This document shows, piece after piece, positions 9,001-12,000 of a stretch of 64,000 nt of DNA (the stretch's first letter is position 1; every line of letters begins with the position of its first letter). Source of the stretch: a plasmid; assembly GCF_057098645.1 (NCBI RefSeq), contig NZ_JBXSPU010000002.1; one strand, 5' to 3'. Position numbers: made by a program.

Positions 9001-12000
9001 TGTTGTTTTAGGCGTTCCGGATGACGGAGCGATGCTGCAGGCACAGATGGTTCTGGATCAGGTGATTTCTTTGGTGACAACTCACTGGCAACAAGACGTA
9101 TCAGAGGTATATGTCTGTACATCATTCGTTCAAGCGCATCGCCAATATTTTTTAGCAGATGCCATCGATCGGCCACCTGTCTGGCCTGAGGTGCACCTTC
9201 ACGTGCTGCTGTCGCATAGACTCCACTGCGATCACGCGAGACAACCTGTATTTCCGGATATTTTCTGAACCAGGCCGCCAGCGTACGCTGATCACGGCCG
9301 GGAAGCAGGACGAGGGGACGGTGAGTATCAAGATTGACGATTAACGTACCGTAACGGTGGCCCCGATGCCACGCCCACTCATCAATACCGACATGAGGCG
9401 CGCCTGACTGTTTCGTCTCCGGGGTATTGATAACCCTGCGAAGGAGAGTATCAGCACTGCAACGGAGACCCACTGCCGTTGCAGCCCGTTTCCCAGCCTC
9501 ACCTCCGGCGATTAATCCCAGTTGACGTTGTAAATTTTGTAACGCCTGTGAAGACTGTTGGTGTGAACCGGCGAAGGGAGCAAGCGACTCGGCAAAAATT
9601 TTACGTGAACAAGCCGGGTTACGGCAGTACCAGTGGCGGACGGAAAATACAAGCCATAGCGTATGTCCTGAGCAGGGTAGATGCTGTATCCGGCGCCGAC
9701 GACAACTATGAACAGAGTCGCTACGCTTAAAGCATTCAGGACATTGTGCTGTTTTGCGTTTTGCGTTTTGCGTTTTGCGTGGAGATGGAGGGTTATACCG
9801 TCAGGGCTAATAATTTGTTGACTGCATCGCCATCCGCAAGGTAACTGTAGAAGTGTCTTAAGAGAGTGCATTGCGTTGCCCATAACTTAAAACAGCTTAG
9901 ATCTTTGTTCACCAGAACGTTTCATCCATTTTCTTCCACCCAAGTTGCGGAAGAACCACTTTCAACAGCGGGTCTGGACAGAAAGCGGCTCTTGATGTGG
10001 ATTATCGCATGGTGTGGGCTTTCAGCGGCATGGTGACTGGAAAGTAACGATATTGCATCTGTGGCAACGAAAATTGCAGAGTTGGTACTCTTTGAACTGC
10101 ATAAGTAAGCAGAAAGGTAAGGTTATGCTTTGCGATTGAAATTCAGCCTTAACGTACAATAATTTTCGATATCCAAACTGCCCCCCTATAACAGCAAAAG
10201 GTCCCACAAGACGCTCGTGGAATATATTTTAAAAGAGAACAAAAATTGCAATATGTGGTGGCTCCATACAGAGGATTGACAACATTCCCATGCTAATTGT
10301 TAAGATTCAAATTGAAGTATATCTATCTGTCATTTTTGCAAATGACATGCGGTAGCATAACGTTCCGGGGCCTCCTGTGCCGTCATGCGTGACGACATTG
10401 ACCAGCCAATAACGGCACGTGACCACAGCCAGATACGGCCAGCCTTCATCCGTACGTAAATATGTGATGACTCCCGCCCACTTCTGGTTCGGGCCACTGG
10501 CGTAAAAATCCTGCTCCAGCAGATTTTCTGACACAGGCTGGCTGTGTGCGCAGTAACAGACCGGACTGAAATTCCAGGAAGCTTTTGCCCTCAGTCCGTG
10601 ACGGCGCAGGCTTTCCGTCACGGTTTTTACTTTAAAATGGTAACCCTGGGTACGCAGTTCATCCATCAGGCGTTGTGCATGACCGGGTAAAAGCAACGAG
10701 GACAACGCTGTCGCAGTGCTGACGGAACTGCCGACGTGTACTTATCCTTATCCGCCACTGATATAAGACGGTAATTCACCATTTGGATTGTCCGCTCCAC
10801 CCAACATGTTGTTTCCTTGAGGTTCTCACACCAGAAAGGACATCAGCATGCTGAGCAGAGAGGACTTTTACATGATAAAGCAAATGCGCCAGCAAGGTGC
10901 GTATATTGTTGATATTGCGACTCAGATTGGTTGCTCTGAACGAACAGTCAGACGTTACCTGAAATACCCGGAACCTCCGGCCAGAAAAACACGCCACAAA
11001 ATGGCCGAAATGGACTATATCGACATGCGTCTGGCTGAGAACGTCTGGAACGGCGAAGTTATCCTGGCGGAAATCAAAGCGATGGGTTATACCGGTGGCC
11101 GTTCCATGTTGCTTCGCCAGTTCAGGAAGACACCGGAGCAGCGCTTCACGCAGGAACACAGTCTGTTCTTCCGGTTGCTGAACCGTCGATATGAAAAAGC
11201 GAGCATCGTGCTGACGTCCAATAAAGGGTTCGCCGACTGGGGGAGAGATGTTCGGTGATAACGTGCTGGCAAAATATTCACCCAACGCATTGAGCGTAAT
11301 AATCTGACGCTACGCACCCGCATTAAGCGGTTGGCTCGTAAAACAATCTGCTTCTCACGCTCAGTTGAGATCCACGAAAAAGTGATCGGAGCGTTTATCG
11401 AAAAACACATGTTCTACTAATTGGATGCACCACCGAATACATTAATTTATATAACAACATCAAAATACATTTTAGGTTGTCGCTAATCAAAAATTATTAA
11501 GTGTTACATAATTAGAGGGTATACATATGATTCATCCTGGATCTTCTTTAGATAAAGCAATTAACAATACAAGAGTTAAAAATGTTAGTACTGATGTTAA
11601 ACATGGCCAAATTCAAGAGAGAAAAAGGAACTTTATCTATAAAAAAAATGATGATATCTCATCCAGATTTAAACTTTACAGTTCGCTCGTAAAGCAGAAA
11701 AATGCGACAGAAGATGTTGTTCTAATAGGCAAAATGATTTTAGATGAAGTCAGAAGTTACAGAACCATACATAATGATCGAAATATCGTAAGTAACTCAG
11801 GAAACTGGAAAACATCTTTTTTATGTAATCTTGCTAGACTACTATATAGCATATTTAATGGTAGTAACTATTTTTGTTCCCGAGAGGGTGAAAATAATTC
11901 ATCCCCCAGTTCTACTCTACTTACTATACATCAGCCTGAAAGGCAGGAACTATTACAACAAAAGAGTATCAAACATTTATCAACTAGTAATAACATCGAC

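Follow-up and report, generated by a model that had tools for sequence, protein, structure and literature searches.

Does the perfect tandem heptamer carried by a per/toxB virulence plasmid lie outside any gene, or does its length matter to the gene around it? The tract, four copies of GTTTTGC, lies in a 64,000-nt stretch of plasmid DNA (RefSeq assembly GCF_057098645.1, contig NZ_JBXSPU010000002.1; hereafter the window), where a first-pass annotation had described it as a potentially slippage-prone microsatellite in non-coding sequence beside an ISL3-like transposase, with no gene context. Our analysis instead places it inside the transposase gene of an ISEc38-like insertion sequence (IS) of the ISL3 family. 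On the evidence of the alleles compared here, it is a new polymorphic variable-number tandem repeat (VNTR), the length of which is predicted to decide whether the gene is intact; our literature searches found no description of a heptamer tract in ISEc38.

The tract and the transposase reading frame

The four units at 9751-9778 are perfect, as first recorded, and in Tandem Repeats Finder the array reaches 9780, with 4.3 copies, 100% matches and a score of 60, the second-highest of any array in the window. At period 7 the sequence matches itself here over a run of 23 nt; runs at the other periods between 4 and 12 reach 9 nt at most, and the longest period-7 run in 300 first-order Markov simulations of the window was 12 nt (mean 7.7). 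Given also an analytic expectation of ~1e-9 per window for a run of at least 23 nt, the tract is not a product of chance, and it has the perfect head-to-tail structure that is required of a VNTR. Elsewhere in the 64 kb, both strands included, GTTTTGC occurs only 10 more times, at scattered positions.

Translation of the minus strand revealed that the frame of the start codon and the frame of the zinc ribbon and DDE domain lie one base apart across the tract, so that in the window the N-terminal part and the remainder of the transposase occupy different frames (Table 1). The protein after the tract (TAQCPECFKRSDSVHS…) is an ISL3 zinc ribbon followed by a DDE domain, ending at 8250, and the tract-encoded residues directly precede the zinc ribbon. 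The family assignment is unambiguous, with 376 bits for the canonical protein and 370 bits for the five-copy allele against NCBIfam NF033550 (ISL3 transposase, cut-off 180), E = 1e-36 for Pfam DDE_Tnp_ISL3 and 28.6 bits for Zn_ribbon_ISL3 (cut-off 25.5). The 407-aa open reading frame (ORF) with a GTG start at 8250-9473, which the first-pass annotation had taken for the transposase, is part of the coding sequence (CDS) downstream of the tract; the protein seemed N-terminally truncated because the four-copy tract breaks the frame. The tract aside, nine amino-acid substitutions distinguish the window gene from the canonical ISEc38 transposase, and it is free of further defects. Within the ISL3 DDE region, residues ~293-398 of the transposase (window ~8700-9020, minus strand) form an inserted helix-turn-helix segment with matches to several helix-turn-helix Pfam families and to the N-terminus of IS21-family transposases (NF033546, E = 1e-16).

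These data leave practically no room for a non-coding microsatellite next to the transposase. By ORFs alone the tract does look intergenic, since at n=4 (n being the number of heptamer copies) the sole long downstream ORF called starts at 9473. However, the tract lies inside the inverted repeats of the IS, both of its flanks encode consecutive parts of one ISL3 transposase, and the NCBI Prokaryotic Genome Annotation Pipeline (PGAP) annotates one frameshifted CDS across it. ORFs across the tract on the plus strand are only 32-46 aa long, and an Rfam E-value scan of window 8000-10400 yielded no RNA family. The frame analysis thus refutes the non-coding reading: an ISL3-like transposase was correctly recognized, but the tract belongs to its minus-strand CDS, between the start codon at 9883 and the zinc ribbon. 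An iteron or other protein-binding repeat was likewise rejected as an identity for the tract, which is coding on the minus strand and has trivial ORFs on the plus strand.

A unit of 7 nt is no multiple of 3, and the number of units therefore determines the reading frame after the tract. In virtual constructs made from the window, the ORF was uninterrupted only at n=2, 5 and 8 (539, 546 and 553 aa), met a stop five codons past the tract at n=3, 6 and 9, and ran into a long out-of-frame tail at n=4 and 7; every three added units insert AKRKTQN directly before the zinc ribbon. The window, with n=4, is thus predicted to carry a transposase-OFF allele, one +1-unit slip short of an intact gene, and the exact 123-aa product of this allele is present on 10 public contigs. 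In agreement with the constructs, PGAP calls the gene "frameshifted" in plasmids with n=3, 4 and 6 and intact at n=5. The "frameshifted ISL3 pseudogene" of many per/toxB plasmids is one unit away from an intact gene, and since this status differs between near-identical plasmids, such pseudogene calls are allele-specific.

A transposase split over two frames, with full length requiring a change of frame, is also seen in transposases of the IS1 and IS3 families, where programmed -1 frameshifting joins the frames during translation and the gene is not broken. The n=4 and n=7 alleles would need a -1 shift of this kind, and the start frame reads GCA AAA C, where tRNA-Lys might slide back by one base and pair with A-AAA. 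A weak -1 slip of this kind on GCA-AAA-C could allow some leakage at n=4 or 7. In the IS1 and IS3 families, however, the split is conserved and is resolved by the ribosome at a slippery site, whereas here a recent change of length in the DNA varies by allele and is absent from canonical ISEc38, which has a single ORF. Further, the n=3, 6 and 9 alleles would require a +1 shift, so that the direction differs between alleles, the start frame has no X-XXY-YYZ slippery heptamer, and ISL3 has 0 occurrences in a large review of recoding. We consider a programmed frameshift site very improbable and rejected it on the grounds that the frame break is not conserved.

Table 1. Coordinates of the tract, the transposase gene and the ends of the insertion sequence in the window
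Feature	Position	Strand	Description
ISEc38-like ISL3-family IS	8201..9962	-	Extent set by homology to other ISEc38 copies
Inverted-repeat arm, 3' end of transposase gene	8217..8244		28 nt, 93% complementary to 9935-9962
Rest of transposase CDS	8250..9750	-	TAQCPEC… zinc ribbon, DDE domain; stop codon 8250-8252; at n=4 in the -1 frame relative to the start codon
ORF open at n=4	9512..9883	-	123 aa: 35 genuine N-terminal residues, tract residues and an out-of-frame tail
Heptamer tract	9751..9780	-	(GTTTTGC)x4.3 on the plus strand, (GCAAAAC)4 on the coding strand; transposase codons 36-45 (…LHLH-AKRKTQNAK…)
5' part of transposase CDS	9779..9883	-	ATG 9881-9883, codons 1-35, MGNAMHSLKTLLQLPCGWRCSQQIISPDGITLHLH; same start as called by PGAP in L001-L004
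Inverted-repeat arm upstream of transposase start	9935..9962		Outer ~16 bp of complete copies (e.g. L005) absent past 9962
Right-hand junction and flank	9963..10029	.	IS-free pO157-type homology starts exactly at 9963; VNTR-36 reverse-primer site 10007-10029 (minus strand)

Copy number among related plasmids and the origin of the array

The closest relatives of the source plasmid have the same graveyard of IS remnants, flanked by perB, perC and toxB. Among complete plasmids, we found n=3 in CP148350, n=4 in CP148580, CP047380, CP148558 and CP148560, n=5 in CP148340, and n=6 in CP148279, CP148271 and CP056279. For a wider search, the exact predicted product for each n was matched by identity in a collection of 15 billion proteins and the encoding contigs were then read. 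Public assemblies and metagenomes added n=7 (loci L015-L019), n=8 (L030, L031), n=9 (L040) and a perfect n=2 (L032, L033), as well as many further loci with n=3, 4, 5 and 6. An exact look-up of the n=3, 6 and 9 products (46-60 aa) found nothing, as gene callers probably skip such short ORFs, and the shared 407-aa downstream ORF served as the query in their place; L034-L038, unrelated ISEc38 loci without the tract region that share one of two 407-aa sequences, were set aside. The perfect alleles from n=2 to n=9 are all at one locus and have the same toxB-side junction, while n=1, 10 and 11 were found neither in the complete plasmids nor by the exact-product search. Whole-unit differences between alleles at an orthologous locus in close relatives are expected of a VNTR, and this range strongly supports the suggestion that the tract is prone to slippage. 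Repeat number across related plasmids, the comparison proposed with that suggestion, is variable and not invariant.

The surrounding sequence has changed far less. A single substitution in 7,854 aligned nt separates locus L003 (n=5) from locus L004 (n=3), most n=2-9 alleles have 0-2 substitutions in the adjacent 1.5 kb, and for each n from 2 to 9 some members of one haplotype of the IS (haplotype A) have 0 differences from the window over the 1,501 nt downstream of the tract. Judged from these alignments, tract length outpaces point substitution by far, and it does so always in whole, perfect units; from the allele series we infer replication slippage as the cause.

The resident IS copy exists as two haplotypes that differ by 16 single-nucleotide polymorphisms (SNPs), all within the IS (window 8461-9589) and with identical flanks; the haplotype sites were examined also in L003, L004, L018 and L019. 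The 407-aa ORF of haplotype B is identical to that of ISEc38 copies at the unrelated loci L034-L039, a pattern that resembles the outcome of gene conversion with another ISEc38 as donor and the resident copy as recipient. In two metagenome contigs A and B sites are mixed in a mosaic, through either recombination or chimeric assembly. The n=3 allele is present on both haplotype backgrounds.

Could the differences in copy number be errors of sequencing or assembly in resolving the repeat? Some long-read assemblies resolve repeats poorly, and draft or metagenome assemblies are the source of several alleles. However, the tract is at most 63 bp long, below typical short-read length, and the differences between alleles are always whole 7-bp units of perfect sequence. 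The same alleles also recur in independent studies and countries: n=4 in Korea, China and this window, and n=6 in isolates from Korean dogs and one from UK wastewater, which have three private SNPs in common. These shared private SNPs indicate that the alleles pass down within sub-lineages and do not stem from random errors of assembly. We therefore regard an artefact as a very unlikely source of the allele series.

The heptamers are not repeated in this way in other copies of the element. Canonical ISEc38 has on its coding strand an interrupted dimer, GGAAAAC-GCAAAAC (GTTTTGC GTTTTCC on the plus strand), which is in frame (…LHLHGKRKTAQCPEC…, 539 aa). All sequenced non-expanded copies have this form, including the closest ones (L005, L006, L008-L011 and L039). 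Copy number was then surveyed with a 363-nt query carrying an artificial 9-copy tract, for which the match length reports n. The lists comprised the 60 best rows of E. coli genomes, the 60 best rows of plasmids and 60 rows spread evenly down the ranking of 3,467 E. coli records. The n=2 length was found in all 54 and 51 non-lineage rows of the two best-hit lists and in all full-length rows of the evenly spread sample, such that outside one plasmid lineage every listed record has the n=2 length. For the canonical dimer, each of the rows listed out of ~3,260 E. coli records likewise gave n=2. In a pattern scan of one genome per species the single match was K. pneumoniae ATCC 13883, with the canonical n=2, but this collection is too sparse for the question of copy number; a scan of Joint Genome Institute (JGI) metagenomes for n of at least 3 gave one contig only.

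L006 (CP146553.1), which has the same insertion, preserves the ancestral state at this locus: its alignment with window 8201-13009 is at 99.1%, the toxB-side junction is shared, and it retains the interrupted dimer (an imperfect n=2) and an intact ORF. A change of GGA to GCA, which replaces Gly36 by Ala and makes the dimer perfect, marks all expanded alleles; some proteins combine the window-type N-terminus with Gly36. The locus offers a clean natural example of a stable interrupted dimer that became an unstable microsatellite through a single point mutation (Gly36Ala), with every other ISEc38 copy listed or sequenced as an internal control.

Neutral variation and the case for a switch

Most probably, the tract is a young hypermutable VNTR in the transposase gene of one resident ISEc38 copy and varies neutrally, rather than being an evolved switch. 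In the copy upstream of toxB, Gly36Ala makes the interrupted dimer perfect, and we propose that slipped-strand mispairing has since caused gains and losses of complete 7-bp units. Mismatch repair is expected to be inefficient on loops of 7 nt. The variation would be a neutral by-product of a repeat in a copy that no longer moves. The approximate numbers of haplotype-A contigs are consistent with this (2 for n=2, 6 for n=3, 7-10 for n=4, 24-26 for n=5, 11 for n=6, 5-7 for n=7, 3 for n=8 and 1-2 for n=9): they are unimodal around five copies without a three-fold periodicity, and the out-of-frame n=3 and n=7 outnumber the in-frame n=2 and n=8. In addition, no in-frame copy was found away from the toxB locus among the loci examined, and thus there is no sign of transposition by the tract-bearing element. 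It is the unimodal counts, the lack of periodicity and the single locus that favour neutral slippage over an evolved switch.

Several observations weigh on the other side. In-frame alleles make up about half of the contigs, where one third would be expected if frame were irrelevant; because of clonal spread the contigs are not independent samples, and this excess neither supports nor excludes selection. In none of the alleles examined does the ORF have a second disabling mutation, which fits a recent origin and would also fit maintenance. Slippage itself is read from the series of alleles, and some of these come from short-read or metagenome assemblies, with L018 and L019 being mosaic and possibly assembly chimeras.

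The alternative that these points raise is an evolved, selected phase-variation switch (a contingency locus), in which reversible ON and OFF states of the transposase benefit the IS or the plasmid, for example through bursts of transposition in a minority of cells. The structural hallmarks are there: the repeat lies within the 5' part of the coding region, its unit length is no multiple of 3, and close relatives carry many alleles. ON alleles (n=2, 5, 8) and OFF alleles (n=3, 4, 6, 7, 9) occur on the same background in natural populations, the ORF is otherwise intact, and the commonest allele, n=5, is in frame. We nonetheless consider selection for switching unlikely. The perfect repeat is confined to one insertion in one plasmid lineage, and is not conserved across the gene family or across lineages as a contingency gene would be, with the other ISEc38 copies listed or sequenced keeping the stable interrupted dimer. 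Also against it are the allele counts described above, the lack of any tract-bearing copy found at other loci, and a gene-proximal end that is missing the outer ~16 bp of complete copies. A promoter and terminator scan of 9600-10200 gave one promoter-like site, on the plus strand at 10136, and no sigma-70-like promoter on the minus strand upstream of the start, a result that is uninformative either way. Slightly less probable still is a true slippage-driven ON/OFF switch of an IS transposase in E. coli, with n=5 and n=8 active and the other copy numbers silent; if this were so, the n=5 and n=8 transposases would have an additional basic stretch of 7 or 14 residues in front of the zinc ribbon. 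A functional switch would represent a new way of regulating an IS, through stochastic bursts of activity, and our literature searches found no description of such transposase control for ISL3 elements.

The CTGG x3 hotspot of E. coli lacI, likewise a short perfect repeat in a coding sequence, reportedly gains and loses whole units by slippage, with frequent frameshifts (Farabaugh et al. 1978); that hotspot has a 4-bp unit and was studied in the laboratory, whereas the ISEc38 tract has a 7-bp unit and is known from natural allele diversity. In contingency loci of Haemophilus, Neisseria and others, such as the AGTC repeats in mod, slipped-strand mispairing at a repeat in the 5' coding region turns the reading frame on and off (PMC3711429). 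The ISEc38 tract resembles these in switching frame through a 5' coding repeat. Contingency loci, however, have repeats conserved across strains, usually lie in surface or modification genes, and have measured switching rates, while the tract arose once in one IS copy and its allele pattern gives no sign of selection on the frame.

The insertion, its ends and its surroundings

The tract-bearing IS is 97.8-98.5% identical over ~1.76 kb to copies annotated as "ISL3-like element ISEc38 family transposase", and elements with the ISEc38 annotation that are ~98% identical to the 1.86 kb around the tract occur in thousands of E. coli records. It is bounded by terminal inverted repeats, as expected of an ISL3-family IS, and the core within the conserved inverted repeats is 8222-9957. 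What sets it apart from ISEc38 at large is the perfect, expanded heptamers, Gly36Ala and the shorter gene-proximal outer end. An 8-bp direct target-site duplication was not found at the window IS with either definition of its ends; the sequences next to the core, TGAAAAGT and ACTTTCAA, are not direct repeats. The left flank is an IS91 remnant and the right flank is the region of VNTR-36, a plasmid typing locus discussed below. Flanks of different origin without a target-site duplication indicate that the IS copy has been rearranged since it inserted. Given the missing ~16 bp of outer end and the missing target-site duplication, the copy may be immobile anyway.

Complete ISEc38 copies have an extra outer inverted repeat of ~21 bp outside the conserved GGCTCTTCC… ends of the core (at 1501-1521 and 3244-3264 in L005; L010 was also compared). 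This outer repeat has at least two sequence variants, TGTCAACGACGGATGAAAAGT and TGTCACGAACGGTGCAATAGT, and may either belong to the IS or represent a palindromic target that it prefers. In the window copy it is present only at the left end (8201-8221), with 9958-9962 remaining at the right end.

The right-hand junction coincides with a known typing locus. VNTR-36 (O157-36) is a locus of multiple-locus VNTR analysis (MLVA) with a 7-bp unit in non-coding DNA of pO157 (PMC3321953). The published reverse primer (PMC3321953, PMC8461963) matches the window exactly, the forward primer site is absent, and in pO157 the sequence directly left of the point where homology to the window starts is a (CCTCACA)n array (L014, CP088031.1, 1044-1086, ~6 copies). 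Locus L006 retains 4 bp (CTCA) of this array at its junction; the window does not. Collectively, these observations indicate that the IS occupies the VNTR-36 locus and has a second, unrelated heptamer VNTR within it. Both have a 7-bp unit, are on the same plasmid backbone family and have a slippage-varied copy number among close isolates, but the VNTR-36 repeat is CCTCACA and non-coding, whereas the GCAAAAC tract in ISEc38 is elsewhere, is coding, and shifts the frame so as to toggle a gene. With the reverse primer site present and the forward site absent, VNTR-36 typing of strains that carry this plasmid is predicted to return a null allele. The tract, with at least eight alleles on otherwise identical sequence, is a possible high-resolution marker where the IS has destroyed VNTR-36.

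The IS sits in a graveyard of remnants (window 6239-8206 and 10307-11490) that contains IS66 TnpA and TnpB, a group II intron maturase fragment and fragments of IS630, IS91, IS3, IS21 and IS1, in an order conserved among related plasmids. The toxB ORF (lymphostatin-like, window 11527-20556) runs for 3,009 aa without a stop. In relatives toxB is annotated as 9,510 nt long with an "internal stop"; it thus appears that in this lineage the gene is cut short or interrupted close to its 3' end. Two more tandem arrays lie towards the end of the window, at 63647-63697 (11-bp unit, 4.5 copies) and 63745-63796 (21-bp unit, 2.5 copies), the latter with the top Tandem Repeats Finder score in the window (69); both may be iterons of a replicon.

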